Source: a virus
Direction: 5' to 3' (one strand)
DNA: 64,000 nt
Virus genome (UHGV): UHGV-0279745
Positions within the stretch are counted from its first letter, which is position 1, and every line of letters begins with the position of its first letter. The notes under the pieces were generated by a model. It had not been told where the DNA came from and did not search any database. It worked only from the letters and a program-made list of their open reading frames with translations. Both the position numbers and the translations under genes were made by a program. Of this stretch, positions 5,104-60,966 are shown in pieces.

Positions 5104-5748
5104 ATGGTCAATAAAAACTTCCTTAAAGAGAAATGGCTTTACCCGCAGACTGAGCCGGATCAACAGGGCCGTACGCGTAAACTGGGCATTGAACTGAACG
5201 AGTTCAATGGTGATGTGGAACTGATGAAATTCCACTACTCCTTTGGTAAAGGCGAAGGTCTTTATTTCACCGCAGGCTATACCGTTTGCGTTGATATCTT
5301 TGAAACCCTACGTACGGTGATGCAGAAACCCGAAAAAGTTGTTTTCAAATGGGAAGATGCAAAAGGTAAGAAGGCACCGGTTAGCTTACACGTAGGTCGT
5401 GATGAAAACCTGACACCGTTCTTTGCACTGAGCGGCGAGATCCCAGGGGTTGGTGCGCGTCAGAAGAAATTCTATTTCACTTATCCGAAAGGTTATCGTG
5501 TTTTCCGTAATGGACAACTGGTCTCCGATCTGGAACTGGCAGAGCGTCAGCTACGCGCGTTCCTGAAAAATGCGGATGTATTCCTGGAAGATTTCCGTGA
5601 CAACTACAAACCGCGTGAGTTTAATAATGCGGGTGGTGGTAGTTACGGTCGTGGTGGTTACAATAACGGCGGCAATGGCGGCGGTTATAACAACCAATCC
5701 GGTGCAAAAGCCCCAACACCAACTAACGATTTTGACGATATTATCTAA
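5104..5748 (+). CDS. putative single-stranded DNA-binding protein (SSB-like)
   Basis: Gly/Asn/Tyr-rich flexible tail ending in acidic tip NDFDDII, resembling the bacterial SSB DFDDDIPF tail. Strongly optimised codon usage. N-terminal OB fold not verified. Confidence 0.45.
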   Translation: MVNKNFLKEKWLYPQTEPDQQGRTRKLGIELNEFNGDVELMKFHYSFGKGEGLYFTAGYTVCVDIFETLRTVMQKPEKVVFKWEDAKGKKAPVSLHVGRDENLTPFFALSGEIPGVGARQKKFYFTYPKGYRVFRNGQLVSDLELAERQLRAFLKNADVFLEDFRDNYKPREFNNAGGGSYGRGGYNNGGNGGGYNNQSGAKAPTPTNDFDDII

Positions 5749-5797: not shown

Positions 5798-5881
5798 GTG
5801 TATGTGTGTAGAATACAGTCGAAGTTATCTGAGATAGATTTTATCTTAGTGGACGACTATGTTATTCCTGGAGATTTTAAA

Positions 5882-7510
5882 ATGCGCATTGAAAAGAATC
5901 GTGACCGTTTAGTGATAAAGTACGGCGAAAAAGAGGTCGCGTTTAATGGTTTCCGAAATGGACGTAAAGACGTGAATGTGCCAGACGTACGCGATAGTTT
6001 CGGACAGATCGTAACGCACGATAAAATCATGTTCATGGAAATCGAGCGTTATTGGTCAACTTTAACGCCTGAAGAGAAAAGCGAACTGTTTTCAGTTTAC
6101 GAAGAATTAGAGTTGTTAGCTAATGAACCCCCAGAAGTTATTCGTGAACACGTCCCCACGCTCGTCGCGAGAATTGCTAAATTTCATCACGCAGATAGAT
6201 TCCGCCAGCTTTATCCACACGGTTCGGTGTGGATTCCTCAAAACGTCCACGAAACGTACGAAGAGATGTCGTCGAATTATCCAAAAGAGATGACGTATAT
6301 CGTACAAGATTATTACGAATTGGTGATTTTGTCTTTGATGACAAAACCGTTTATTCCCGTATTCTTGATTTTGGACGCTTTTCCTGCAACACGCGCTTCT
6401 GTTGAGTCGAAGCGCAAAAGTGTTTATAACCTGACCTACTGCATGGAGTTGTTGTCTGATACCGAGATTGCTACACTGCCAGCCATTACAAAGTTGCGTG
6501 AGTTTTTAGTGTCGGTGATTTCGAAAGTTCAGGACGGAGGGAGTAAAGGACCCAATACTGCAAACCTTACCGTCCTGGCATCTATCTGTGGCTACGGTAC
6601 GGATATGGTAGAGGAATACATCATAGCGTTCGCCGTTATCCGTTTAATTGCAATGAAGTTAATCGGTGCCGAACTACCGCCAGGTACGATGGTTGAAAAC
6701 AACATCGTGGCGGGGATGTATTTCAATATTCGACAAGAAATCGAAACGGGCTTCGCGGGAAAAATTTCCGGCCAAAACGTGATGTTAAAAGCGAATCCTG
6801 AGAAAATCATGTTCAATGGCGAGAAGGGGAAAACTTCGTCGATTGACCTGGTTCAAGCTCGGACTAAAGCACCAATGAAGGAATTCGTTCGTACCCAAGA
6901 ATTCTTTAATGACTATCGTCGTGCGGTACGTGCTTTGAATCTCGATATTGCTCCCGCTGATGTGAAAGTGTTGATAGATTCCATCAACATTAATCATCAA
7001 TATCCGTTCTACGAACTCTACGAATGGTTGGTGGCGGCAGTGATGCACCGATTTGCAGATCGTCGTACATACAAGGAAATCGACTCAGAAGCGTTTAAGA
7101 ACGCGATGGGTATATCCCAAGCCGTTTACATCTATTACGGAATGCCTGAGATTGCACAGTTGTTAAGTTGTGAAATGATCCGGGCACCACTAAATGGCGG
7201 GTATCCCATCGAGCCTATCGATAATGAGATTAAAATAAAAACGGATAGATATTATCCACAAGCATACCGTAAACATCGTAATACTTACGAACAATCAACA
7301 TTGAAGGATTCTCTCAGCTTGTTGGTTCGTGAACATATTGCGCCGTTCAACTTCAATCTCAGGGCAACACCGGAAGCAGCCAGAATGTTACGGTGTGGGA
7401 CAGTGATGTTGGACTATTCACCTCATCCGCGACTTCAGAACATGTTAGCAGAATTTCTGTTAATTCAAAACAGAAAGAAATGCGAAGAAGTAGCATGGTT
7501 TAATCAATAA
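5882..7510 (+). CDS. hypothetical protein
   Basis: Long ORF; start placed at the first ATG with RBS GGAGAT (5869-5874). The track's GTG start at 5798 lies inside the terminator tail. Confidence 0.55.
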   Translation: MRIEKNRDRLVIKYGEKEVAFNGFRNGRKDVNVPDVRDSFGQIVTHDKIMFMEIERYWSTLTPEEKSELFSVYEELELLANEPPEVIREHVPTLVARIAKFHHADRFRQLYPHGSVWIPQNVHETYEEMSSNYPKEMTYIVQDYYELVILSLMTKPFIPVFLILDAFPATRASVESKRKSVYNLTYCMELLSDTEIATLPAITKLREFLVSVISKVQDGGSKGPNTANLTVLASICGYGTDMVEEYIIAFAVIRLIAMKLIGAELPPGTMVENNIVAGMYFNIRQEIETGFAGKISGQNVMLKANPEKIMFNGEKGKTSSIDLVQARTKAPMKEFVRTQEFFNDYRRAVRALNLDIAPADVKVLIDSININHQYPFYELYEWLVAAVMHRFADRRTYKEIDSEAFKNAMGISQAVYIYYGMPEIAQLLSCEMIRAPLNGGYPIEPIDNEIKIKTDRYYPQAYRKHRNTYEQSTLKDSLSLLVREHIAPFNFNLRATPEAARMLRCGTVMLDYSPHPRLQNMLAEFLLIQNRKKCEEVAWFNQ

Positions 7511-7540: not shown

Positions 7541-9247
7541 ATGGCAATGAAACTTTTGAAACTACAAATGTATCCAGTGTACGAAATCCCAGAGCAGATT
7601 CGTCGTCGCATTGGGTTCTTTGAATCGCAGCACGCTTTGGATGAGTTAGTGGATGTGGTTGCAGAACATGGTGATAAAGCAACAGGTTCTCGGGCTTATC
7701 AAGAAGCCTTGGGGCAGATTGTGGGTTTCGACAATACCCCAACTGGCATTGAACGTCCATTCATTAACGTGAGTGATAACGAATCGCAACCAATCCATTT
7801 TGCGTATAATTCTCGCGATACTGGTGTGTATAACTTCGTGGCGATTATTGTTTCGAACTCGTTAAATGACACACGGACTCAAGAAACACGTTATGTTGTT
7901 TCCGGGTATACGTCCCAGGCAGAGCGATCCATGTTTAATCACCTGCCGGATGACATGGTTCTGTATATCAACGAAATATACGGGTTACAATGTACGTATA
8001 TCACCGATGCGTTTGGTGGACGTCGTATCAACCCGGATTCCTTCCGTTTGATAGACAACTATGTGTTGTCCAAGACATTAACCGCAGACAGCTATGTAGA
8101 GCACACCATTGACGTTATTTCTACCGCGAAAGCAGCTGATATGGTGCGTAAAGTGGTGAAAGCAGGTGAGCAGATTGAGCTGGATAACAACACCGTTATC
8201 TCCGCTAATTGCCAGCGTGCGCCACAGTTGATGTCTAGTCAATTAACCAGACCAGAATCTTTCGTGACGGCGATCTCCAATTCCTTTATTAACACCATGG
8301 GGATTGAAACGGAGTTGAGCGCAGTAGACAGCTTCTTCGCAGGAGATCATTCTCTTGGGGTAGAATCTGAACTTAGCCAGATTGGTGTGATGCGTAATTT
8401 CAACAGTTACGAGTTGGTGAAGGCTTTTAGAACCGCCATATCCAACGCCACGTCCGATATGACTAGCGGTTGGAACGTTGCGAACCGTGCAGCATTCAAA
8501 CTGTGCGACCTGCGTAACGCGGTGATTAATCCCGAAGATGTGGATGCTGCAATTGCGCACTCGCTGGCTGTCGCAGCCCGTCGTGGTTTTGGTGAAATTG
8601 AACGCACCGATGATTGGGTAGGACGTAACAACTATTCTACTCAGGGTTCGTTGGTGGCATTTGATTTAGCCATGTTACTGGGGCCTGTGGTCACTCGTAA
8701 CCTTATCGGCGAAGTGACTTTCTTCTACGATAACCGTATGGCGGATATTGCAACACCTCCTCTGCTGCAAGTGTCAAAACACAACGTTGGGGCATTAACT
8801 GAAGACGGATTACCGGATGTGTTAGCACGTCGCTTCTTAAGTGACTTACAAGGCGTGTTCTTGCAAGTGACTAAACACAACCGTATTCGTTGTAAGATGA
8901 CCGTAACGTGTATCGTTGGGGTGGTTTCACGTATTGAAATCGAAATCGATGGTGAGCTACCTGAGTATTATACTCATGCGTCGTTCATGAAAGCACGTCT
9001 GCATTGTGGTACAACGACTGACCTTCAGTACACGAACCAGTTAGCTGCAGAAACAGCGCAGCTGATGAACAAAGTGGAAGAAGGGTACCAAGAATTCAAC
9101 CGTGGTCAGAACCGTTCGAATATCCTGTCGAATATCCCAACTGCCCCTGTGTCTGCACCTACGAGCCTGGGTAGCTTCGGTAGCTTTGGTGGTGGCGATA
9201 TGTCAACCTCTGCGCCAGTGTCTGGCTTTGGTGCATTCGGCGAGTAA
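7541..9247 (+). CDS. hypothetical protein with Gly/Ser/Phe-rich C-terminal tail
   Basis: 568-aa ORF; RBS AAGGAG; C-terminus SLGSFGSFGGGDMSTSAPVSGFGAFGE. Confidence 0.6.
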   Translation: MAMKLLKLQMYPVYEIPEQIRRRIGFFESQHALDELVDVVAEHGDKATGSRAYQEALGQIVGFDNTPTGIERPFINVSDNESQPIHFAYNSRDTGVYNFVAIIVSNSLNDTRTQETRYVVSGYTSQAERSMFNHLPDDMVLYINEIYGLQCTYITDAFGGRRINPDSFRLIDNYVLSKTLTADSYVEHTIDVISTAKAADMVRKVVKAGEQIELDNNTVISANCQRAPQLMSSQLTRPESFVTAISNSFINTMGIETELSAVDSFFAGDHSLGVESELSQIGVMRNFNSYELVKAFRTAISNATSDMTSGWNVANRAAFKLCDLRNAVINPEDVDAAIAHSLAVAARRGFGEIERTDDWVGRNNYSTQGSLVAFDLAMLLGPVVTRNLIGEVTFFYDNRMADIATPPLLQVSKHNVGALTEDGLPDVLARRFLSDLQGVFLQVTKHNRIRCKMTVTCIVGVVSRIEIEIDGELPEYYTHASFMKARLHCGTTTDLQYTNQLAAETAQLMNKVEEGYQEFNRGQNRSNILSNIPTAPVSAPTSLGSFGSFGGGDMSTSAPVSGFGAFGE

Positions 9248-9269
9248 AAGATTAATCAAGGACTCTTAA

Positions 9270-10625
9270 ATGAAAATTATTGAATTCTACAAATCGTTTC
9301 TTAAATCACAAGGATTCGATTTTGAAAACGATTTACTCACTCGTGACGGTGGTGAACCGGCAGAGTTTACGTATAACAAAGTGAAGCGCCGTTTGGCGCT
9401 TCCCACCCCAGCGATGATTAAGCGTGGTATGGAAGACGATGATGGTCGTGAATGTCAGGCATTTCATCCACTGTGTGAATCGGTACTGGCAGGTGAATCA
9501 GGGACAATTCGTTTCCTGAAGAAATCCATTAATGCGAACCTGTTCATTCGTTCCTTTGCATTAATCGACGCGATTCTGGAAACGGGGGCAAGTGGTAAAG
9601 CAGTACGTTCTGCATCCTACAAGAAGTTCTTAACAGAACAGATTTGCGAAGGGATGAAAGATCCGACGTTCGACGAACGTTTGGTGAAATCCTGGGAAGC
9701 GGTGAAAGCGTTCGTCTATGGACAATTGGAAAAAGATAAAAAGCACAAGATCACCCAGCTTTTTATTGCATCTGATTTAGTTATCGACGGCGTGAAGTTT
9801 AACCGCGTAGCTAATTATCGGAATATGTTCGAAGAAGAATCGTTAGATGGTACTGCAATGTACTTCTCTGCGAAGCTTCAACGTAAACAAGACAAAATCA
9901 TTATCCACCGTTTACTGACCACCGTGTTCGGTTGGTATCCGAGCGTAACGGGGTCTAATGATTCGCGTCCGTATTTCGGTTGCTTAGCACGTGGCTGGGC
10001 GCAGTACGTTGTGAATTACAATAATGTCGTTAAGGGATTGCGCGACCACACATCTTTACGTCCGTTGGAAGATGAATGGATTTCTCAGCTGGACAATATG
10101 GATATTTACGATAACGTTATTCAGACTTTACCGTATAACACCGGCCCACGTTCTGACAGCCCTGAACGTGATACCACGGCGCATGATTTCCGTATCGATC
10201 GTGCGCAGGCTCCGCAGCAGATTCCACAAAAACGTGCATCGGATGCGGATAAAGCGGATAAGTCAGATCCGATGGAATTCTTCCGTGCTCGTGAACGTAA
10301 CATGGCCGCGCGAAGTCCTTATGGGAATTTGACGCCAGCGATGCAACGTTACGCTGAGCAACACGGAACAACTAGCCCTGCCAACGGTATGGTAAGTCGA
10401 ATTTCTGTTGTGGATGCGTTTGGTGGTGAGCGCAAGGTGTCACCTTTCGGTGGTCAGAGTATTTTTGGTGTAGGGAATACCGGAGGCTCTTTGGCAAGTA
10501 CCTTTGGTGGAGGGAATAATTCTTTCAGCGGGGATGTCGGTGGGACTAGCGCGTTTAGCACGAGTTCAGCATTTGCAACGAACAGCAGTTTCGGTGGATT
10601 TGCAACTTCGGCATTTACGCGTTAA
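9270..10625 (+). CDS. hypothetical protein with long FG/SG-repeat-like C-terminal tail
   Basis: 451-aa ORF; the last ~80 aa are low-complexity G/S/F/T-rich (FGG, FGV, FSG, FGGF repeats). Confidence 0.6.
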   Translation: MKIIEFYKSFLKSQGFDFENDLLTRDGGEPAEFTYNKVKRRLALPTPAMIKRGMEDDDGRECQAFHPLCESVLAGESGTIRFLKKSINANLFIRSFALIDAILETGASGKAVRSASYKKFLTEQICEGMKDPTFDERLVKSWEAVKAFVYGQLEKDKKHKITQLFIASDLVIDGVKFNRVANYRNMFEEESLDGTAMYFSAKLQRKQDKIIIHRLLTTVFGWYPSVTGSNDSRPYFGCLARGWAQYVVNYNNVVKGLRDHTSLRPLEDEWISQLDNMDIYDNVIQTLPYNTGPRSDSPERDTTAHDFRIDRAQAPQQIPQKRASDADKADKSDPMEFFRARERNMAARSPYGNLTPAMQRYAEQHGTTSPANGMVSRISVVDAFGGERKVSPFGGQSIFGVGNTGGSLASTFGGGNNSFSGDVGGTSAFSTSSAFATNSSFGGFATSAFTR

Positions 10626-10635
10626 GTGAAGTATA

Positions 10636-10665
10636 AAAGAAGGGACTCGGTCCCTTCTTTTTTTA
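10636..10665. terminator. terminator hairpin between convergent genes
   Basis: Stem AGAAGGGAC/TCCCTTCT followed by a T-run; lies between the + gene ending 10625 and the - gene ending 10663. Confidence 0.55.
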
Positions 10666-10986
10666 ATCATTACCGATGGTGCTAATAATCTCACTAACCG
10701 TTCCGACGTCGGGTACGATTAGTTGCGTGATTTCAGGGGTGAAATTCATGGGGTCTTCTAGCCCGTTTAATAGCATCATCGGATAGATAATGATATCGGC
10801 GTAACCTTTGAGTTTACAGTAGGCGTAGAAATTGTGGACCTCAGGCCAACTGTAGCGTGGGTCAACATTTTCTATTTTAGTTTTCGGGTGTTTACGCAGA
10901 TAGTCTGTGTAATCGTGCATCACTTTCCATGTCGTGGTGTAAGGCGCAGGTATGAATTCTTCTAGGGTAATAAAATTGTCTAACAT
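10663..10986 (-). CDS. hypothetical small protein
   Basis: 107-aa ORF on the minus strand with RBS AGGAAC; divergent from the beta gene. Confidence 0.5.
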   Translation of the reverse strand: MLDNFITLEEFIPAPYTTTWKVMHDYTDYLRKHPKTKIENVDPRYSWPEVHNFYAYCKLKGYADIIIYPMMLLNGLEDPMNFTPEITQLIVPDVGTVSEIISTIGND

Positions 10987-11049: not shown

Positions 11050-13287
11050 ATGAAAACGCCAGTAGAGCTAATGAGCAGTGTGGCTGACCGTGAGATTAAT
11101 ATCACCGAAGTATCAGGTGCAAGGGCATCGATGGTAGGCAACCATATGAAGTCTGCGGTCCCTATCGACAATCCTGAACCATCGCCGCATTTTACAGGCG
11201 CAGATATAAACTACCACGATTTTCTGTTCAACGACGTTGTAGAAGATCCCGGTAGCATCTGCCACTATATGACCAAAGACGGTCGTCAGCGCCGCGCGAC
11301 GTTTACACGTTATGGTCGTCGTGGGGATTCTAAAGCGTTAGAACATGCTATCTTCTTCCGCCGTGCAGAAATGAAGGGCGGTAAAACCATGATAGATGTG
11401 CTGGAGATTAACTTCTATACTAACCACGACAACATCTTCTCATCTGAGAAACGTGAGTCGATGAAACTGCGTAGTATTTTACGTGGTGAAACCGATCAGT
11501 TGGAAAAGGATGAAATCCTTACAACGATGTCGTGTATGGTGGAAGGCGAGTACGCCGATAGCGTTGTGCTACCAACCGTTACGATTTCGCATCCTGATAT
11601 CATCGAGGATTCTTACACCATCTCTGAGTACGCCGCCCAAAAACTCCACGGTTATGGTTTGAAAATCGTTGAAAAGACGCTACGTGAAGACGAGTTTTTA
11701 CTGGATACTTACGGTTATATCGATCCGAACGGTAATCGCGTCCCACGGTATTTCCCGGATGTGGGGGAGGCTATTCGTGACGATGGGTTGGTCATTGCAT
11801 CGCGTCGTTTCGATGAACTTTACGGTGCAATTGATGCGTCGCTTGGGGAAACCCAACACGTCTCTCCGTTCTTTGATAGTTGCGAATATGTGGATGCCGA
11901 TCCCGTCCATTATAAAGCACGTCTTGCAGGTGACAAAGAACTGATGGAACGTAGCGGTACACGTATCGTCGATATCCAGGTGTGGCGTGATGAAACGTCT
12001 TGCGCGAATGGTGCTAACAATATTTCTTGTACCGAAGAGAACAAACGAGAACTGGATAAATACGCATTAGCATTGAAAGACTATTACAATGCCATCGTAC
12101 GATTCTATTTCTCGATGTCCCGTGACAAAAATATTATCTGGTCGCCGAAAGCGTGTGTGTTGTTGGAGAAAGCGTTCGCTTCTGAAACGTACGAGGTCTA
12201 TCACGAGTTTCGTGAAGAGATACGCGTGGTGATTGATGAAGCAATTCGTCGTGGTGAATACGGTAAAGAAAATGTCAGTCAGCAGATTCTTTCTAAGTTG
12301 ACCTCGCCAGTACAACGTGGACTCAGCGATCCCATCAACACGTATACCATTCGTATTGCTGTTCGTTATCCGATCCCGGTAACGGTGTCGTCTAAGATTA
12401 CCGACCGCTCGGGTACGAAAGGGATTGTTGGACGTGTATTACCCGTTGAACAGATGCCGATTAACGAATTCGGTGAACGTGTTCACGTTTTACGTTCGAT
12501 GAACGCTGTAATTCGTCGCTCGACATATGCAGCATTATTCCACATGTATTGGTCAGCTGCGTCTGAACAGTTGAAAATGCGTCTCAAACCATTGCTGGAT
12601 GAAGGACGTATCAGCGAGAGCTGGGAAATCCTGATGGATTATCTATCACGCTATAATCCAGAATGGGCCAATACACTACAGGCAACGCATCCTACGGAGG
12701 ATTTACAACGCGAACTTTTCAAAGAGATTTACGATTTTACAATCCGTATTTACTTACCACATGAACTTGACGACACGCCAGTCGATATCAGTGAACGGTT
12801 GGGTGAATTTAAACCGCGTAAATCCAAACTCCTGATTACTAATTTCGATGGTAAACAGGAATGGACAAAAAATGAGTTTTACGTAGGTGGTGTGGAAACA
12901 TTACGTCTGGATAAAACAGGTCGTGAGTTTTCCAGTATTTCGTCAATGTATCTGAATTATCTGGGTACGATAGACGCGTCTAACCAAGGCCGTGGTTCGT
13001 ATCCGATAAACTATAAAACGCTAAAATGGGCTGGTCCTTCGGAAGAACGACTGTTAGCGGGTTATGGTCCAGGTAACTACGAAGAAGTTCACGACAGGGC
13101 AAATAACCCTGCGGTGCATCGTGAGATTTTAGTAGGGCTTTATCGATCTCAAACCCCGTCTAATCCGGGTCCACTGGTAGACCGAAATAAATTCCCGTTA
13201 GGGGATTCACAGATTGACAGGATGATGAAAAACATTCACAGCTGTGAAGGGTTTGAATTGGTGAAAATGAAAAGGGGCGATGAATAA
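11050..13287 (+). CDS. multisubunit RNA polymerase beta subunit, C-terminal module
   Basis: [12 protein letters not shown] resembles [39 protein letters not shown] resembles [37 protein letters not shown] resembles EMEVWALEAYG. All in the same order as bacterial beta. Confidence 0.75.
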   Translation: [745 protein letters not shown]

Positions 13288-15428: not shown

Positions 15429-17138
15429 ATGTACGAATTCCACATGACCTTTACGAGTATGGGCGTGAGGGTCGAAGTCCCTTGTCGACCTATAGAGTCG
15501 GCAATCCTAAAGTGGGCAGAAGAGAATATGCACGCCCCGAAAATGGGCAAACAATACGGAAGAATCATCACCGAACGTGGCGATCCGTATTACGCGCATA
15601 TACCTTCTATCCGTACCTTTATATTCCACCGGAATTTTTCCGAACGTTTACGAATCATTATTAACCGAACGGCCGCTGAGTTTGCAATTGACTTTAAACT
15701 CTACGAGCACCACTTAACCCAGGGAACACCTTACCGCTGTACGTTTGAAAACTACGGCTTTAACATGATAGAAGAAGATGAGTCGTCACGCTTCTTTTAT
15801 CAGAATGGCGTTGTAGAAACAGCGTGCCAGCCTAACCGCTTACAAACCATCTTTGAGATTGGTACAGGGATGGGTAAGTCGAAGACGAACATGAAAGTGA
15901 TGGTTCGTAAAGGGGTAAGAACGTTATTGATTCATCGTCCCACGTACATCTCTAAATGGTTATTCGACTTAACGGAAGATCCTACTGGACTTCGTGAATC
16001 GAAAGAGGACGTCTTGGTTATACAGGGCGTACAAGCGGTCTACGAAGCGCTAGAAATGGGTGAAAGTGGTGAGTTGGATAAACGTGGCATCAAAGTTATT
16101 ATCGTCTCTACAGTGACGTTACAGCGGTTTTTGAAAGAATATATCAACACCGCTGCGACTAACCCGGTGAACATCGATGATTTCTATAACACGCTAGGTG
16201 TTGGGTTCTTATCGATGGATGAAGTGCACGAACATTTCCACTTGGTGTACATGGCTGGAATTATGTTGAATCCGCCGCCCTCTGTTGAGATGTCAGCCAC
16301 ACTCCAACCGGGTGAATCGAAAGCGTTCTTGGCAGAACGGTATAAAGAACGTTTCCCACAAGAGGCACGTATCACCATTCCGATTATTCCTGCGGTACAC
16401 GTGAAAGCGTTGTATTACCGAATTGAGAATAAACGGTTTGCGTGGTGGGCAACGAAGATGACCCCGTATAACCACAAACTGTTTGAAGGGAAGCTGATTA
16501 GCGAAAACCTTCATCAGTCGTACGCGGATATGGTCTGGGATGTAATAGAACGGACGTATCTGGCAGGCTATCAACCTGGTCAGAAAGTGTTGGTGTTGTT
16601 TGCAACTGTCGCAATGTGTGAGTTCTTTACGGATTACGTGCGAGAGAAGCTTACACAATCTGATAAGTTCCATGCGTTGATGGTTGCGAAATATAACGCA
16701 GGGGATTCGTATGACGACTTTATTCAAGCGGATTTCTCTATATCAACACCAGGGAAAGCAGGTACTGCGGTTGACAAACCGGGGTTGGTGCACATGTACA
16801 TTACTACCCCTGTGGAAGACCAGCAGTTAAACCGCCAGATGGCCGGACGCCCACGTAAGATTCTCCACAACGACTGGGGTGAACTCGATCCCGTTGTGTG
16901 GTTATTCCATTCTTATTCGATACCGAAGCATTGCAATTACTTGAATGCGCGTCAAAAATCACTGAGTGATTCTGTGTTGTCGTTTAAGATAGCCACCTCA
17001 CCGTATATTGTAAGGAAAGCTGATGTTACTACCGCCGCAGCCAACAGAGCCAACCGCGCCGTATGCCGGTCTGAACTTAGCAAGTTTTCTCGAAAAAGTT
17101 TTAAAGGCGTATCCCGACGTTTTAGACGTCGTAAATAA
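15429..17138 (+). CDS. SF2 DExH-box helicase
   Basis: Walker A GTGMGKSKT; motif II MDEVHE; motif VI-like QMAGRPRK. The last ~40 codons are Arg-rich and overlap the next ORF. Confidence 0.7.
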   Translation: MYEFHMTFTSMGVRVEVPCRPIESAILKWAEENMHAPKMGKQYGRIITERGDPYYAHIPSIRTFIFHRNFSERLRIIINRTAAEFAIDFKLYEHHLTQGTPYRCTFENYGFNMIEEDESSRFFYQNGVVETACQPNRLQTIFEIGTGMGKSKTNMKVMVRKGVRTLLIHRPTYISKWLFDLTEDPTGLRESKEDVLVIQGVQAVYEALEMGESGELDKRGIKVIIVSTVTLQRFLKEYINTAATNPVNIDDFYNTLGVGFLSMDEVHEHFHLVYMAGIMLNPPPSVEMSATLQPGESKAFLAERYKERFPQEARITIPIIPAVHVKALYYRIENKRFAWWATKMTPYNHKLFEGKLISENLHQSYADMVWDVIERTYLAGYQPGQKVLVLFATVAMCEFFTDYVREKLTQSDKFHALMVAKYNAGDSYDDFIQADFSISTPGKAGTAVDKPGLVHMYITTPVEDQQLNRQMAGRPRKILHNDWGELDPVVWLFHSYSIPKHCNYLNARQKSLSDSVLSFKIATSPYIVRKADVTTAAANRANRAVCRSELSKFSRKSFKGVSRRFRRRK

Positions 17139-36822: not shown

Positions 36823-36904
36823 TCATTTAGATTCGTAGTTCCGTACAGTTCTTGAAATAAATCATCAGGGGAACAATACGTTCCCCTTAGAGGAAAAGCT
36901 TAAA

Positions 36905-38170
36905 ATGGCGAATTTCTACAAAAACAAAATTGCTCGTGAGTCTATGGAGTCTACTTCTACTGTAGTTCCAGACGGCATCGAACTGCCAGCAGAATCCGTA
37001 GAAGGCACTCTGGCCGATATCGAGCATGACACCAAACCGATCGAAGCTCTGGACGCTGACGCTGAACTGCTGGCAGAAGACGGCGACGAAACTGACGCTC
37101 AGCTGGATGTTCTGGATGAAGCTCAGGCTGCTGCTGACGGTGAAGGTGCTGGCGAAGACGGTGAAGAACCGATGGACGCCGAAGAAGATATGCCGGACGA
37201 CGCTGCGACTGCGCTGGACGTTGCTCAGGAATCTATCCGTTCTCGTTGGAACTTCGAACACCGTTCTTCTGTTGCTCACGAATCCTACGGTTCTCGTAAC
37301 CGTCGTCAGGTTGCTCGTGAATCCCTGTGGGAAGACATCAAAGCCTTCCTGGGCCGTATTCTCGATTGGCTGAAAGAACAAGGCCGCAAACTGAAAGATC
37401 GCTGGCTGAAATTCCACAACCAGGGTAAATCTATTCAGGCGCGTGCTAAGAAATACGATGAAGTTATTCGTAAGCTTGGCAAACAGAAGAAAGATGAGAT
37501 CTCTGGTGGCTTTATCAAGTCTCTGTCTATCGACGGCAAGTTCGTCGGCGATAATATTCCGAAACTGAAAGGTATCCTTAACCAGGTCTCCTCGTTCTAT
37601 AGCGCTAAGATGCCTGCCATGGCCGCTAAAGCTGCTGAAGTGGTTTCCGATGTTACCAAAGGTAATGGTGTTAAAGTTGAAAAACTGAAAGCCGACTTTA
37701 CCGAACTGTCCAAACAAGACAGTCTCCAAAACTTCAAGCTCGGTAACATGGCGGTGAAAACCGAGTATGACAACGAAGGCGGCTTCAGCTCCACCTTTGT
37801 TGAAGCTGAAAACAGCGTTGAAACTAGCGTGAAAACTCCGTCTGTTGGCGAACTGGCCAAAATCAATGCTCTCTTCAACGAAGTGGGTAAACAGATTGAG
37901 AAAAACGTTCAGGATTATCGTAAAGTCGAAAGCGCGCGTAAAACCTTTGAAGATAATATCGATAAGCTCCTGAAAGAAGTCGATAAAGTTAAGATCGACG
38001 AAAAACCGGAACTGACCGAAGGTGTACGTGCTGCCCGTCGTTTCATCACCAGCGTTAACCAGGGTCTGTCTCTGGGTGAGAAGGTTATTGCTTCTACTCA
38101 GAAACACCTGGCCGGTGGTCTGAACGGTTACCTGAGTGCCGGTATCGGCGCTTACGAAAAATCTAAATAA
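36905..38170 (+). CDS. abundant acidic protein, tandem paralog B
   Basis: 421 aa; paralog of 35551-36822; optimised codons; followed by a strong terminator. Confidence 0.7.
   Translation: MANFYKNKIARESMESTSTVVPDGIELPAESVEGTLADIEHDTKPIEALDADAELLAEDGDETDAQLDVLDEAQAAADGEGAGEDGEEPMDAEEDMPDDAATALDVAQESIRSRWNFEHRSSVAHESYGSRNRRQVARESLWEDIKAFLGRILDWLKEQGRKLKDRWLKFHNQGKSIQARAKKYDEVIRKLGKQKKDEISGGFIKSLSIDGKFVGDNIPKLKGILNQVSSFYSAKMPAMAAKAAEVVSDVTKGNGVKVEKLKADFTELSKQDSLQNFKLGNMAVKTEYDNEGGFSSTFVEAENSVETSVKTPSVGELAKINALFNEVGKQIEKNVQDYRKVESARKTFEDNIDKLLKEVDKVKIDEKPELTEGVRAARRFITSVNQGLSLGEKVIASTQKHLAGGLNGYLSAGIGAYEKSK
37478..37517 (+). repeat. 40-bp perfect direct repeat, copy 2
   Basis: Identical to 36082-36121. 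Confidence 0.8.
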
Positions 38171-38186
38171 TCCCTGATTGTTTAGT

Positions 38187-38235
38187 AAGAGAACCACCCT
38201 GTAATGGGGTGGTTCTCTCTTTTCTTTTTTTTTTC
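38187..38235 (+). terminator. rho-independent terminator
   Basis: Stem AGAGAACCACCC / GGGTGGTTCTCT followed by a 16-nt T-run. Confidence 0.7.
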
Positions 38236-55851: not shown

Positions 55852-57504
55852 ATGGCAACTGTCAATAAAGACGTAATTCGTAACCACATCTATAGCACGA
55901 TCTCCAGTGGTCGTGATGAACTTTTATCGTATCTTTGTAATCAAGCACGTGCTGCTGGATTGAATGACGACAAATACATGGATAATGCCGTTACCGTCGC
56001 CACGTGGTTTGTATACAACCGTCGTCCAGATAACGAAACTGCATCGGCGATTCTGGCAACTTTTAAATCGACGCTGTATAGTGACTTACTGGGGCGTGGT
56101 ATGCAGCCACTGGACCCGCGTATTCACAGCCAGCTGGAACAGGAATTCCGTACGGCAAATCAGTATGCGGTACAAGCTAAACAGCTTATGGCGCAATCGA
56201 GCACTTTTGGTGGCCCAGCAATGGGTGGGTCTCCGAGCTTAGCGATGCCAGCGTCTGGCTTCCCAGGCAACGGCTATGGTAGTCCACAACCAGCACCAGC
56301 GGTACAAGGGGGTTCTATCCCAATGTCAACTTACGATCCGCGCACAGCGGCACAGAAGCAAACAGCGCAACCGCAAGGTAACTTCGGCCAGCCTGCACAA
56401 CAACCTGCACAGCAACCCGTGCAACAGGCACAGCCTAAACCGACTGTTTCGCAGTCTATGGTGGAAGCTAACAAGCCGCGTGAGCTCGACGAGAAAACTA
56501 TCGAAGAACTTGTCGAACGTTACAATAAACCTATCATCGATCATTTCCGGGTGGAAATTGTGGAAGACTATTTAGATCACGAACTTAGAGAACAGATTAA
56601 GAAAAATATTCTTACGCCGAAAGAACTCAATGAACGCATCAAAAATTCACCGTATTCTAGCCATCACAACTGGTCAGAAAAGGTTGACGAAATCATCGAT
56701 AATGAAGACGTCGATTATTGCGTTTATGATGAAGCGGATGTGATGGTGAAAACCGAAAGCGAGTATAAATTGTTCCCGATGGTGAGTACGGATTCGAGCA
56801 AAACTTACCTTCAAGAATTTTATACTGCCACCCGCCAGGCAATCGATGGTATCGAAGATATTCGCGATATTGACGATCCGGAAGAAATGCTGAAGCGTAC
56901 GATCGATGAGGTGTTCCGCATCCGTAAAATGTCTGAGCGCCTACTGCAATATTTCAATACTCAGGCAGAGGAGCCGGATACACTGAAACAAAGCTGTGTG
57001 GAGTTTTGTCAGCAGTTTAACGCAACACTCACTGTTTTGGTTCATAACGCGATTGCTGTTGCGACAAACTACGGTAAAGGAATTCCAGGTACGAAATTTG
57101 TACAATTCGATTGTAACTTAAGCGATCTCGAATACTTCCGTGACACGCTGTTCCCGCGCACTATCGGTGAAAATGGTGTAACCACGGCTGCGGATTTCTT
57201 CCGCGAACTGTGCTTGCTGGTTGCACGTTCTGTTCGTAAGTTGCACTTCCGTCTGAAATCTAACGATCGTGCTATTGAAATCTGTCGCGTAACTTACACT
57301 ATTCAACTGCCTGCGGATTACCCGTCTGCAAAAGGTCGCAATATCGTAGAGATTTCCTCCTTCGGTAATGCGTTTGAACCTATTGTCGGTATCTATGAAG
57401 CAATTAACCAACGCGCACCTGAAGCTATTGTGAAGCTGGCTACCCCGTCGGCATCGTATACACTGCTTAGCAATGGTGAAATTACCGCACCGGTGCGTTA
57501 CTAA
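55852..57504 (+). CDS. hypothetical protein with Gln/Pro-rich low-complexity segment
   Basis: 550-aa ORF; RBS AGGAG; QPAQQPAQQPVQQAQP repeat region. Confidence 0.6.
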   Translation: MATVNKDVIRNHIYSTISSGRDELLSYLCNQARAAGLNDDKYMDNAVTVATWFVYNRRPDNETASAILATFKSTLYSDLLGRGMQPLDPRIHSQLEQEFRTANQYAVQAKQLMAQSSTFGGPAMGGSPSLAMPASGFPGNGYGSPQPAPAVQGGSIPMSTYDPRTAAQKQTAQPQGNFGQPAQQPAQQPVQQAQPKPTVSQSMVEANKPRELDEKTIEELVERYNKPIIDHFRVEIVEDYLDHELREQIKKNILTPKELNERIKNSPYSSHHNWSEKVDEIIDNEDVDYCVYDEADVMVKTESEYKLFPMVSTDSSKTYLQEFYTATRQAIDGIEDIRDIDDPEEMLKRTIDEVFRIRKMSERLLQYFNTQAEEPDTLKQSCVEFCQQFNATLTVLVHNAIAVATNYGKGIPGTKFVQFDCNLSDLEYFRDTLFPRTIGENGVTTAADFFRELCLLVARSVRKLHFRLKSNDRAIEICRVTYTIQLPADYPSAKGRNIVEISSFGNAFEPIVGIYEAINQRAPEAIVKLATPSASYTLLSNGEITAPVRY

Positions 57505-58248: not shown

Positions 58249-60966
58249 TTAGAGAGTTTCGTCGGTGTTGTCGTCTGTACCGGTATCCGTCCCGTCTGTG
58301 TCTTCAGCAGAAACGTCTTCTTCCGTTGTCGTATCGGTTTCCGTCGTTTCATCATCAGACATGTCCAAGTCTTCATCACCGCCCATATCGTCACCACCTA
58401 AGTCCTCATCGCCCCCTAAGCCACCGTCGTCTTCAGAGCCGCCACCGAAGTCGCTACCCCCGCCGAAGTTATTGGCGTCCTCAGGATTCAGATCAGCCGC
58501 TTTTGCTAAGGTTTCAACTTTACCTGTTGTGCGTTTAGCTAACTGAATCAGCGTCTTCGATGCTGCTGCGATTTCATCAGAAATCATCTTGACGTTTTCA
58601 CCACGTTTATCTTCGTCGTAGATCAAATCAAACAGATCGGTTTCGATACCTTGATTACGCAGCCAGTTACGCGTATAGAACGATTTAATCATCGTCTTGA
58701 GATCATCAGGCTGCATTTCGATACCTTCATTCTGAAGCATATTCGAAATATCGTCGGTAACAACCAGATCCGCCAGTTTCTCAATGAACTCATAGCGTTT
58801 ATCAAACAGATCCGCTTGTGAAGAAGAGGCTGATGTGTCTGGTGGTGGTAAAGTGACCTTCATACCGTTGATGAACTTCGCCAGATACTCCGACGTTTGT
58901 TTGGTCAAGTCTTCACCTGTTACATTAGGATTTTGATTGCGAATATATTCAACAATAATACGAACCAACTCTGCTTGTAATTTAGGAGAGGCTTGCAAAC
59001 TGTTTGTCACGTAGCGTGTTAACGGCGTAGACAGAATTTCTTGTTTCTTCACGATTTGCTGAGTGACCAGCAGTGACTTGGAATAAATCTGCGAAGCAAA
59101 TTCCAGGTTTTCCGGCGTCAAAACAAGATCAGGGTCTACACACGCGATGTGGCAAGTACGACGGAGTAAGTTCTCATCGATTTGTTGATCGGGCACTTTA
59201 TACTCAGGCGTTGTGTCCGAAACTGACACTTTATGACTGGCGTAGTATTCATTACCTGTCACGTTAAATGCAATCCCGGCATTAGCCCCCATTGACCAAG
59301 CGTCATTGATATCACCCCACATCGGTAAACGACGGTTATAGGAGTTGAGGATATCTGATTTAACTTGGTCAACCGTTTTCTGACCGTTCATGTCATCTGG
59401 CGATAACTCAATGTCGTATTGCATGTGACGTGCTGAGTTCAACACTGAAGAGTTCATCGTTGCGAACAACAGCGCCATCCTGACCGTAGAGATGATAAAG
59501 GAACGTTCAGTGATAGACACCCCAATACCATCTTCGTTAAAGTCCGTTGCAAAGTAGCACAAGTTATTAACCGGGATATAGACAACCTGTGTGTGACGTT
59601 TTGCGAGGTGACGTGCCAGCAGAATACGACCGAAAGTTTCGGTAATTTTCATGCTGATTTCAGCTCCACCCAATGCCTGGCTTAACGCACGGGTAAATTC
59701 GTTCTCAGCAATCTCGCTACAACGGGCACTTAAACGGTTGGCGATCTCTGGCGTTATACGAGAGGTATTACCCAAACCCAAATTAGAGCGGTTGATAATA
59801 CTGTCCGTCATGCCATCGTTGTTAAGGTAGTTCATAAAGTTCGCGTCCCCGTAAAGTGAAGAACGTGAGTTGATGAAGTTACCCATATCGTCAATAATGG
59901 TCAGAAACCCAATAGGGTTACGAACGTCGTCGCCGATAACCAACGGTGCGGTAGACTCAGCAGGCAATAGGCATTCGAAATATTCGATTTGGTTGTTTTC
60001 ATTCATCGAAATAATCGGAATATCGCCATAAGTCTGAGTTTTTGGTGTACCTTTGTACGCTTCGTTCAGATCGCCTAAGTTAATGAAGCCTTTTTCAGCC
60101 GCGTCACGCTGACGATCGTTAAACTGTTGATTAACTTCATACGGCGTAGCACCTGTCGGTGTGGCAGGCTTTTCATATGCGGCTTGCTCTAATTGGCCGT
60201 AGAGACCAGTACGTGCGTTCTCATGAGCGATTCGACGATAAGCATGGGGCAGTAACGTGATACGTGGGTTGTCGGTGATCGAGATGTCCATTTCGAACTT
60301 ATCTGAGAACATCTTATCATGGTTACTGAAATTGATTTTCAGTGATTGTGGTCCTTTAACAGGCCCACGGACACGACTCAGAATAGATTCCACACCCACC
60401 CGTTGCCCGTCATCTTGCCCGTTGATTGGACCGAGAATACCGAGCTGTTCTTCGAAATAGGCAGCTTGAGAACGACGTACGGATTCGGTAGCGACTTTGG
60501 CGTCTAAACCGAACAACTGGTCAAAACCGTTGTCCGAGATTATCATCACTGGACTTGCGCCTTTTGTTTTTAACGCGTCGTAAATCCACTGATATAATTT
60601 CTTAGGTAATTGACGTACGTTATCATGATAATCACGCGTTGGTGTCAGTAGGTCATTACGTAAGTCAATTGGAATGTCTGCGATGTTGTCGTAAATCAAC
60701 GTGGTGTTGATTAAGTCTTTTGTCGACAGCAAGCTCGAAGTTGCAATGGTAACAATCGTTTCGAGTTCAGGTAACGCATCAAAGATACGTTCCGCATTTT
60801 TGATAGTACGAATACGCGAACTTACAATTCCTGCAAGTTCCTGACGTGTTGGCGTAGAACCACCCTCGCTACGCGTACCGCGTTGTTGCTGGGGTGCTGG
60901 GCCCGTAGTTTTACGAAGAATTGCAGCTACGGCGGGGTCGCCCGTTAATTTACTAATATCGTCCAT
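58249..60966 (-). CDS. hypothetical large protein with strongly acidic Gly/Asp-rich C-terminal tail (possible virion protein)
   Basis: 905-aa ORF on the minus strand; the last ~70 aa are GGSDFGGGSEDDGG...DETL-type acidic low complexity. Confidence 0.6.
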   Translation of the reverse strand: MDDISKLTGDPAVAAILRKTTGPAPQQQRGTRSEGGSTPTRQELAGIVSSRIRTIKNAERIFDALPELETIVTIATSSLLSTKDLINTTLIYDNIADIPIDLRNDLLTPTRDYHDNVRQLPKKLYQWIYDALKTKGASPVMIISDNGFDQLFGLDAKVATESVRRSQAAYFEEQLGILGPINGQDDGQRVGVESILSRVRGPVKGPQSLKINFSNHDKMFSDKFEMDISITDNPRITLLPHAYRRIAHENARTGLYGQLEQAAYEKPATPTGATPYEVNQQFNDRQRDAAEKGFINLGDLNEAYKGTPKTQTYGDIPIISMNENNQIEYFECLLPAESTAPLVIGDDVRNPIGFLTIIDDMGNFINSRSSLYGDANFMNYLNNDGMTDSIINRSNLGLGNTSRITPEIANRLSARCSEIAENEFTRALSQALGGAEISMKITETFGRILLARHLAKRHTQVVYIPVNNLCYFATDFNEDGIGVSITERSFIISTVRMALLFATMNSSVLNSARHMQYDIELSPDDMNGQKTVDQVKSDILNSYNRRLPMWGDINDAWSMGANAGIAFNVTGNEYYASHKVSVSDTTPEYKVPDQQIDENLLRRTCHIACVDPDLVLTPENLEFASQIYSKSLLVTQQIVKKQEILSTPLTRYVTNSLQASPKLQAELVRIIVEYIRNQNPNVTGEDLTKQTSEYLAKFINGMKVTLPPPDTSASSSQADLFDKRYEFIEKLADLVVTDDISNMLQNEGIEMQPDDLKTMIKSFYTRNWLRNQGIETDLFDLIYDEDKRGENVKMISDEIAAASKTLIQLAKRTTGKVETLAKAADLNPEDANNFGGGSDFGGGSEDDGGLGGDEDLGGDDMGGDEDLDMSDDETTETDTTTEEDVSAEDTDGTDTGTDDNTDETL

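Follow-up and report, generated by a model that had tools for sequence, protein, structure and literature searches.

RESULTS

Two adjacent genes with FG-rich C-terminal tails

Here, we present an analysis of two adjacent genes in a 64,000-nucleotide stretch of viral DNA (UHGV virus genome UHGV-0279745; the window below is this entire stretch). Open reading frame A (ORF A; 7541-9247, 568 amino acids [aa]) and ORF B (9270-10625, 451 aa) lie in the same direction, and the proteins that they encode both end in low-complexity tails rich in Gly, Ser, and Phe. As detailed below, we assign ORF A to PicA/Imp1 and ORF B to the shell-associated PhiPA3 gp64/PhiKZ gp70 family (referred to as gp70), and we argue that the tails point to an undescribed way for these two proteins to hold onto the phage nucleus.

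The ORF A tail comprises residues 535-568 (window 9143-9244; 34 aa: APVSAPTSLGSFGSFGGGDMSTSAPVSGFGAFGE) and contains four Phe-Gly (FG) units, eight Gly, seven Ser, and two charged residues. The ORF B tail comprises residues 385-451 (window 10422-10622; 67 aa: GGERKVSPFGGQSIFGVGNTGGSLASTFGGGNNSFSGDVGGTSAFSTSSAFATNSSFGGFATSAFTR) and contains nine Phe at a spacing of 3-13 residues (four in FG units and five further), 16 Gly, 13 Ser, and five charged residues. The original prediction for this DNA held that two adjacent genes end in FG tails of about 30 and 80 aa. The tails were confirmed at an FG density unmatched in the window, and the first length fits; the second is an overestimate for the tail proper, which is preceded by further residues of mostly low model confidence. 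We scored the C-terminal 70 residues of 54 proxy genes, which together span 94% of the window: ORF B has five FG units, ORF A has four, and every other gene has at most one. When the window proteome was shuffled 5000 times, a protein with at least four FG units arose in 8 shuffles and two neighbors both with at least four in 0, which excludes chance as the source of the paired tails. Recent tandem-repeat expansion was ruled out as their origin; the sole DNA repeat is a 9-bp unit present 2.3 times at 9170-9190.

In AlphaFold2 models built from family alignments, ORF A has a mean predicted local distance difference test score (pLDDT) of 80.6. Its predicted folded core is residues 1-534 (7541-9142, + strand), and residues 535-568 score 35-47. 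In ORF B, residues 1-287 (9270-10130, + strand) form a core with a pLDDT of ∼90, followed by 164 aa (residues 288-451) that are mostly of low confidence: a linker (residues 288-384; 10131-10421, + strand) mostly at 37-67, in which the alignment consensus has the short semi-conserved helices DPMEFFR, LTPAMQR, and ISVVDAFGG, and the tail at 35-39. Both tails, which are encoded on the + strand as well, are therefore predicted to be disordered (pLDDT below 50), and their charge is low, in line with what had been anticipated from the sequence.

Relatives in the clade of the window (81-99% identity) retain F/G/S-rich tails despite fast divergence and indels. Within this clade, PicA cores are 83% identical and PicA tails 59%, with an FG count going from four to five; for gp70, the corresponding values are 93% and 42%, with an FG count going from four to nine. 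The tails continue the reading frame of conserved cores, and relatives keep their FG composition; they are thus not frameshift artifacts, a concern raised when they were first noticed.

Identity of the two genes and of the source phage

ORF A matches phrog_3141 (1.5e-127; PhiPA3 gp63: 4.2e-170) over profile positions 2-507 of 510, and it is 62% identical to phiEaH2 gp213 and 56% identical to SPN3US YP_009153325. Because a direct BLASTP comparison of ORF A with PhiPA3 gp63 is marginal (E = 0.014), its identity rests on the common profile, synteny, and the literature. On these grounds, ORF A is the PicA/Imp1 nuclear import factor. PicA/Imp1 (PhiKZ gp69, PhiPA3 gp63) is a protein import factor (PMC11087766; 10.1101/2024.03.27.586873), and its punctum at the shell and the need for it in selective protein import are known only for PhiKZ, PhiPA3, and Goslar. 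ORF B matches phrog_3520 (2.4e-123; PhiPA3 gp64: 1.8e-133) and, in BLASTP, PhiPA3 gp64 (2e-18 over residues 4-299); its identity to the gene after PicA is 72% in phiEaH2 and 64% in SPN3US. Based on these matches, ORF B is a member of the gp64/gp70 family. PhiPA3 gp64 localizes to the shell (PMC10643120), PhiKZ gp70 is nuclear, and the function of the family is unassigned. ORF B had first been suspected to be PicA, since a tblastn match straddled PhiPA3 genes 063 and 064; this candidate was rejected when the annotation placed the match in gp64 and ORF A in the PicA position.

The order of the gene block agrees with these assignments. The block consists of genes for an SbcD-like nuclease, a gp66-like protein, ChmC (214 aa), a gp68-like protein (570 aa), PicA, and gp70, a small gene in reverse orientation, and an RNA polymerase (RNAP) beta gene, and its order is identical in SPN3US, phiEaH2, PhiPA3, PhiKZ, Goslar, RAY, pVa-21, SA002, and Phabio. 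The slot of PicA, between the gp68-like non-virion RNAP (nvRNAP) subunit and the gp70-like gene, is the same in the window and 10 annotated chimalliviruses, and the four middle genes match PHROG profiles in common with PhiPA3 gp61, gp62, gp63, and gp64. The PhiPA3 nuclear shell hosts gp61, gp63, and gp64, and SPN3US YP_009153323, YP_009153325, and YP_009153326 are listed as the homologs of these three proteins (Enustun et al., PMC10643120). Figure 1 of PMC11077065 places gp64 among the nvRNAP subunits in its legend, while the main text names gp62, gp65-66, and gp67 as such and gp64 as shell associated; the legend entry is probably a typing error, which leaves the status of gp64 slightly ambiguous.

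The chimallin gene lies upstream of the window start. A contig with a 99%-identical PicA carries, at the expected place, a gene of 615 aa with 51% identity to SPN3US chimallin, and the Pfam family Chimallin_Phikzvirus matches the syntenic gene in relatives. The presence of chimallin at this site on that contig shows that the window derives from a chimallivirus, a jumbo phage of the nucleus-forming kind whose relatives include phiEaH2 and SPN3US. A megablast search of the region against phage genomes gave zero matches, showing that a close sequenced isolate does not exist.

Neither protein has a known domain: Pfam searches found zero domains in ORF A and ORF B. Likewise, PDB sequence searches and Foldseek searches of the AlphaFold2 models against the PDB identified zero solved relatives of either core (best Foldseek E values of 0.25-0.3, with template modeling [TM] scores below 0.2). 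The PicA and gp70 cores are folds without a known relative.

The tail is conserved in the family, while its chemistry is not

We examined the region beyond the gp70 core in relatives. It is present in 27 of 27 non-redundant loci, with a length of 96-211 aa. A search with the gp70 core of 1.84 billion cluster representatives gave 223 family clusters, and among the 150 listed, 145 representatives are full length; all 145 have a post-core region of 88-294 aa (median, 154 aa). In the same 145, the last 80 aa have a median entropy of 3.40 bits compared with 3.95 bits for the core. By simple composition thresholds (a Phe-type tail, for instance, has at least 8% Phe), 41 of these 145 tails are of the Arg/Asp type, 22 of the Met type, 12 of the Phe type, 10 of the Gln/Asn type, three of the Leu type, and 57 of other types. 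Many are regular repeats, such as SNMFGAPQQA five times (P0089), NNPFGNS six times, and TGWGQPA four times. The tail is conserved as a feature, and its sequence and chemistry are not; a sticker-and-spacer tail is among the traits that define the gp70 family, with FG as one flavor of it. Accordingly, the conservation expected in the original prediction holds for the presence of a tail in every gp70-family member examined and fails for the FG chemistry. Homologs that lack the tail altogether, named at the outset as grounds for refutation, exist for PicA (Goslar, RAY, and SA002), which in part counts against the original prediction for the first gene; none occur among the gp70 members examined.

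The chemistry follows lineage. PicA and gp70 tails are both Leu-Gly-rich in phiEaH2, Asesino, and SPN3US (GGLGGGLGGG...), both contain the motif NSLLD in the Caitlin group, and are both Arg/Asp-rich in pVa-21 and its relatives. In CR5, Derbicus, and Phobos, the PicA tail reads GGFSFG...GFKL and the gp70 tail has NPF repeats. The gp70 tails of PhiPA3 and PhiKZ are rich in Met, Gln, Pro, and Gly, and their PicA tails are 30-38 aa long and non-Gly. In a set of four representatives (P0105, P0108, P0173, and P0196), some gp70 tails are Trp-Gly repeats (TGWGQPAQTGWGQPAATGWNAPAQ...), which are reminiscent of the GW/WG repeats in Argonaute-binding proteins, and others are long Arg/Asp runs (DRRDDRRDDRR). 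The extreme end of gp70 behaves differently from the repeats: its last seven to eight residues (window 10599-10622) are alike across clades, with FATSAFTR in the window and FSSAFSRA and FSSANLR in the phiEaH2 and SPN3US clades. That the repeat part switches between FG and LG while the tip stays alike suggests that a short linear motif distinct from the repeats closes the protein.

Salmonella phage SPFM records (P0035-P0038 and P0082-P0086) were excluded throughout. Several SPFM proteins match PicA or gp70 in short shuffled fragments only and look like scrambled assemblies or annotations.

PicA, gp70, and chimallin C-terminal tails switch together

Among 14 representatives of core-identity clusters, PicA and gp70 tails of the same genome resemble each other in composition, with a mean centered cosine of 0.46 compared with 0.00 ± 0.09 after permutation (0/20000), a significance that, as in all permutation and rank tests here, is inflated because related genomes are treated as independent. 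The tails also have 24 4-mers in common compared with 10 ± 3 after shuffling (0/2000), and their same-genome local-alignment score is 46.0 compared with 32.7 ± 2.3 for permuted pairs (0/20000). The coding DNA of the two tails in the window has at most 9 nucleotides in common; gene conversion between them is thus ruled out and is not the cause of the co-variation.

Such co-variation within genomes is expected of multivalent or cohesive interaction modules. An IMG/VR search with a three-sequence chimallin alignment gave three loci only; chimallin (ChmA) was obtained genome by genome for 16 genomes, and its C-terminal 30 residues were used. Over these 16 genomes, an index of Phe minus Leu gave Spearman correlations of 0.83 for PicA-gp70, 0.72 for ChmA-PicA, and 0.83 for ChmA-gp70. 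In the clade of the window, the chimallin C-terminal tail contains ...PSAFGSDFGMSF... and ends in ...SGSGPSAFGSDFGMSFAATDWRPTY, so that chimallin, PicA, and gp70 form an F/F/F set. phiEaH2 and SPN3US, at 56-62% core identity to the window, have an L/L/L set, and SPN3US chimallin ends in ...SGNGLSASGSDFGLGVSLSNFKL. In some lineages, the ends of chimallin and PicA are nearly equal (GGTSSFNF against GGSDSFNF in L055, SRLNF against GGLKF in L063, and NSFTL against DNFKL in Wellington).

As an out-of-sample check, three distant genomes (L062, L063, and L064) were picked solely for an F-type gp70 tail. In each, the PicA tail is also of the F type and its motifs match: NPFG repeats occur in both proteins of L063, and L062 and L064 have LFG in PicA and SMFG or SLFG in gp70. 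Chimallin was captured in L062 and L063 only, and in both its C-terminal end contains GFG[ST]FG.

Two further tails do not follow the switch. The composition of the ChmC tail has no relation to that of the PicA or gp70 tail (-0.10), and a core-versus-core control is null. The second is the tail of the portal protein (58249-60966, - strand), which matches phrog_3004 and, by tblastn, PhiPA3 gene 148, whose product is a predicted capsid portal reported at the nuclear shell. This tail is ∼75 aa long, extremely acidic, and of low complexity, and it begins NNFGGGSDFGGGSEDDGGLGGDEDLGGDD; portal tails of all clades are acidic and lack an F/L switch, those of SPN3US, Stratton, and Derbicus being similar with GF/FG near the start. 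Genome-wide compositional drift is therefore ruled out as the source of the co-variation. Altogether, the PicA, gp70, and chimallin C-terminal tails switch their sticker together by lineage, while the ChmC and portal tails do not.

DISCUSSION

The gene families described here are known (PicA/Imp1, gp64/gp70, and ChmC), as is a role for the ChmC tail. New in this work are the lineage-varying stickers of the gp70 family, the co-switch of PicA and gp70, and the finding that the chimallin C-terminal tail follows the same switch. In the literature on PicA/Imp1, in reviews, and in full-text searches, a scope outside of which the final Nature version of the Imp1 work lies, we found no account of the PicA and gp70 tails, of a sticker-and-spacer tail in gp70, or of the three-way co-variation with chimallin.

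The co-switching of stickers in PicA, gp70, and the chimallin C-terminal tail implies a shared interaction network. Chimallin builds its lattice with the segments NTS, CTS1, and CTS2, which sit on flexible linkers and dock on neighboring protomers, and new subunits have been proposed to enter the lattice via segment exchange (PMC9365700). We suggest that PicA and gp70 each combine a folded core with a predicted disordered, Gly-rich tail in which Phe stickers recur every 3-13 residues, and that these tails may act as multivalent, low-affinity hydrophobic tethers. Contacts of the sort that the flexible terminal segments of chimallin establish on neighboring protomers would also be made by the stickers, which would thereby keep PicA and gp70 within or upon the chimallin lattice, adjacent to one another, at the import site. 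Since the stickers of three shell-associated proteins change together, tethering via the same contacts is the most economical reading. From the sequence comparisons, we tentatively favor the idea that the PicA and gp70 tails are multivalent tethers to the chimallin lattice and to each other, and give it slightly less than an even chance; the placement of the import machinery that would follow from such binding is correspondingly conditional.

Several observations weigh against this idea. The likeness of the chimallin tails to the others is modest: the same-genome alignment score is 26.3 compared with 23.2 ± 1.2 for chimallin-PicA (335/20000) and 32.6 compared with 28.4 ± 1.3 for chimallin-gp70 (12/20000), and the chimallin-PicA tip score has a p value of ∼0.02-0.04, all subject to the inflation noted above. 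In the clade of the window itself, the tips differ (...DWRPTY in chimallin and ...GFGAFGE in PicA). The chimallin N-terminal tail shows no significant co-variation over 12 genomes, the lone suggestive pair being PSFGGAG in the clade of the window and PLGGLG in SPN3US. PhiKZ Imp1 failed to pull down gp70 upon co-expression in Escherichia coli. Goslar, RAY, and SA002 PicA lack the tail and PicA is essential in Goslar, arguing that the tail is not generally required for import. The large share of gp70 tails that are Arg/Asp-rich (41 of the 145 listed) and not hydrophobic would need a different contact chemistry. Finally, ChmC lacking its tail still makes puncta at the shell (PMC11077065), and tails are thus not the sole route to the shell.

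Comparison with the known systems helps to delimit the proposal. ORF A has in common with PicA/Imp1 of PhiKZ (gp69), PhiPA3 (gp63), and Goslar (gp174) the full-length profile, the length class, and the gene position, while its Gly-rich FG tail is lineage specific and the PhiKZ and PhiPA3 tails are non-Gly. ORF B has a core homologous to those of PhiPA3 gp64, PhiKZ gp70, and Goslar gp173 at the same position, and a long low-complexity C-terminal region is always present; however, this region is Phe/Gly/Ser-rich in ORF B and Met/Gln/Pro/Gly-rich in PhiPA3 and PhiKZ. Chimallin resembles the two proteins in its Gly/Ser-rich C-terminal end with F or L stickers that undergo the same F/L switch, in its short hydrophobic segments on flexible linkers, and, in some lineages, in last residues that match those of PicA; it differs in having one or two docking segments rather than a repeat array.

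The FG nucleoporins offer another comparison. In an alternative reading, the gp70, PicA, and chimallin tails would together make up a cohesive mesh, inside the import channel or surrounding it, that provides selective permeability or a track to which cargo complexes bind. Like FG nucleoporins, the window tails are predicted to be disordered, are of low charge, and space Phe-Gly stickers with polar residues (G/S/T/N), and the proteins that carry them are located at the entrance to a compartment that encloses a genome, here at the shell or import site; import into the phage nucleus is selective. Homotypic cohesion would predict the co-variation of stickers, and some tails come close to the GLFG or xxFG pattern (TFG..LFG..LFG..LFG..GFG in Phabio, SLFG/GLFG six times in L057, and the five SNMFGAPQQA repeats of P0089). 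The Phabio gp70 tail also gives a weak match to the Pfam family Nucleoporin_FG (E = 0.011, 17 bits), which is below the curated cut-off of 32.2; the window tails have zero matches to this family at E values up to 10, and there is no homology. Moreover, the window tails are 5-20 times shorter than those of nucleoporins (34 and 67 aa compared with hundreds of residues), Phe is freely swapped across the family for Leu, Met, Trp, or Gln-rich stretches and gives way to Arg/Asp in more than a quarter of the listed representatives, three lineages lack the PicA tail, a pore scaffold is not known, and PhiKZ gp70 is not among the strong hits in the quoted table of an antisense knock-down screen. The likeness to FG-repeat domains that was pointed out originally thus extends to FG units in predicted disordered, low-charge tails and stops short of family membership and of a conserved Phe; we regard a nucleoporin-like meshwork as unlikely. 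A bolder form of the same analogy, that the phage nucleus converged on the eukaryotic solution, with a lineage-specific sticker code (FG in the window, and LG, MG, WG, or NPF elsewhere) that chimallin, PicA, and gp70-family tails have in common and that builds a selectively permeable, cohesive phase at the import site in which gp70 is the functional FG-nucleoporin analog, seems to us rather doubtful; if it held, import would owe part of its species specificity to co-evolution of this code.

PicA and gp70 might instead bind each other directly, tail to tail or tail to core, with chimallin uninvolved and its tail drifting in parallel. Their coupling is the strongest of all pairs in the alignment scores, the motifs NSLLD, NPFG, and LGLL occur in both, and the genes are adjacent in an invariant order. 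The negative pull-down of PhiKZ gp70 with Imp1 speaks against such pairing, as do the facts that gp70 tails are longest where PicA is tail-less (211 aa in RAY and 191 aa in SA002) and that the chimallin C-terminal tail co-varies with gp70 about as strongly as PicA does, and we consider exclusive pairing rather unlikely. That the tails are passive spacers, i.e., entropic bristles or linkers without a specific partner whose composition drifts by lineage, would fit their fast evolution with indels, their huge compositional variety across the family, and the dispensability of the PicA tail in some lineages. Nevertheless, drift cannot explain the joint switch of stickers and motifs in PicA, gp70, and chimallin and not in ChmC or portal, the maintenance of regular repeats, or the clade-conserved gp70 tips, making this explanation distinctly improbable. 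An artifact due to a frameshift, a sequencing error, or a mis-called stop codon is refuted by the homologs, since the in-frame tails are present in the independent assemblies of the clade and in isolate genomes and protein lengths are conserved across both families; its probability is negligible.

These tails bear on a standing question of phage-nucleus biology, namely, how proteins physically pass through the chimallin shell. An import factor and its conserved, function-less neighbor both carrying sticker-and-spacer tails provide a testable handle on this question, and for the gp70 family a structural feature and a hypothesis are now available for the first time. Should the tails dock on chimallin, the entry of accessory proteins into a lattice that tail exchange holds together would be accounted for; should they be cohesive, they would represent a convergence with nuclear pores. 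Cultivable phages offer natural variants of the F type (the CR5/Derbicus clade), the L type (SPN3US), and the M type (PhiKZ/PhiPA3) as well as a tail-less one (Goslar), which makes swap and deletion experiments straightforward.

NEIGHBORING GENES AND ADDITIONAL OBSERVATIONS

The gene at 5104-5748 (+ strand) is, by profile (phrog_3284, 5e-51; PhiPA3 gp61, 6e-81) and synteny, the homolog of PhiPA3 gp61/PhiKZ gp67, i.e., ChmC/Imp6. This nucleus-associated, Whirly-fold RNA-binding protein binds Imp1, and its tail is required for condensates with RNA in vitro (PMC11077065), an experimental result that counts in favor of the multivalent or condensate-forming tails first suggested for these genes. 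The window protein has both features by which ChmC is recognized, homology to PhiPA3 gp61 and an N/G-rich tail followed by an acidic segment. The Gly/Asn/Tyr-rich tail noted for it originally is real (approximately residues 170-205: GGGSYGRGGYNNGGNGGGYNN...NDFDDII). Like the predicted disordered tails of PicA and gp70, it is a disordered tail of a shell-associated protein encoded in the same block and is Gly-rich; unlike them, it keeps an Asn/Gly/Tyr-rich composition and an acidic tip across all lineages and lacks a hydrophobic sticker switch. The tips are acidic-hydrophobic: NDFDDII in the window, DSYDEFL in SPN3US, DDEIPNF in PhiPA3, and DEDMPSF in PhiKZ. The C-terminal tail of the bacterial single-stranded DNA-binding protein (SSB) consists of a disordered linker and an acidic-hydrophobic, partner-binding tip, DDDIPF. 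The plan is thus the same, with a folded core followed by a linker that is Gly-rich and disordered and by a conserved short tip, and it is clearest in ChmC; in PicA and gp70, the tips are not acidic-hydrophobic and the linkers carry repeated stickers. By this analogy, the tip may underlie the label SSB-like that the gene had first received, which was loosely right for what is a Whirly-fold RNA-binding protein, and it hints at a docking partner.

Downstream of the ChmC gene, the gene at 5798-7510 (+ strand) encodes an nvRNAP subunit of the PhiKZ gp68/PhiPA3 gp62 family (phrog_3209, 3e-154; PhiPA3 gp62, 2e-183). PhiKZ gp68 is an nvRNAP subunit (10.1101/2024.03.27.586873), and the gene is context of the block and lies outside the tail system. 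On the other side of gp70, a small conserved gene (10663-10986, - strand; phrog_3455), also context only, is found 3' of the gp70 gene in all relatives examined, and the conserved block ends with a fragment of the split nvRNAP beta subunit (11050-13287, + strand; Pfam RNA_pol_Rpb2_6; phrog_3295, 2e-251).

Three observations concern other parts of the window. A 436-aa Phe-rich ORF at 36887-38197 (- strand) scored high in the FG scan; its composition is odd, it lies among + strand genes, and it was set aside as a gene because it looks like a non-coding antisense ORF. A 550-aa protein (55852-57504, + strand; phrog_8185) contains the internal low-complexity stretch STFGGPAMGGSPSLAMPASGF and then a Gln/Pro/Ala-rich run, QPQGNFGQPAQQPAQQPVQQAQPKP. 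Finally, the 569-aa protein encoded at 15429-17138 has orthologs of 916 aa in L056 (17903-20653) and 910 aa in L057 (17932-20664) with LAGLIDADG_3 and Hint-type matches, which suggests that an intein or a homing endonuclease is inserted in these two genomes and lacking in the window.

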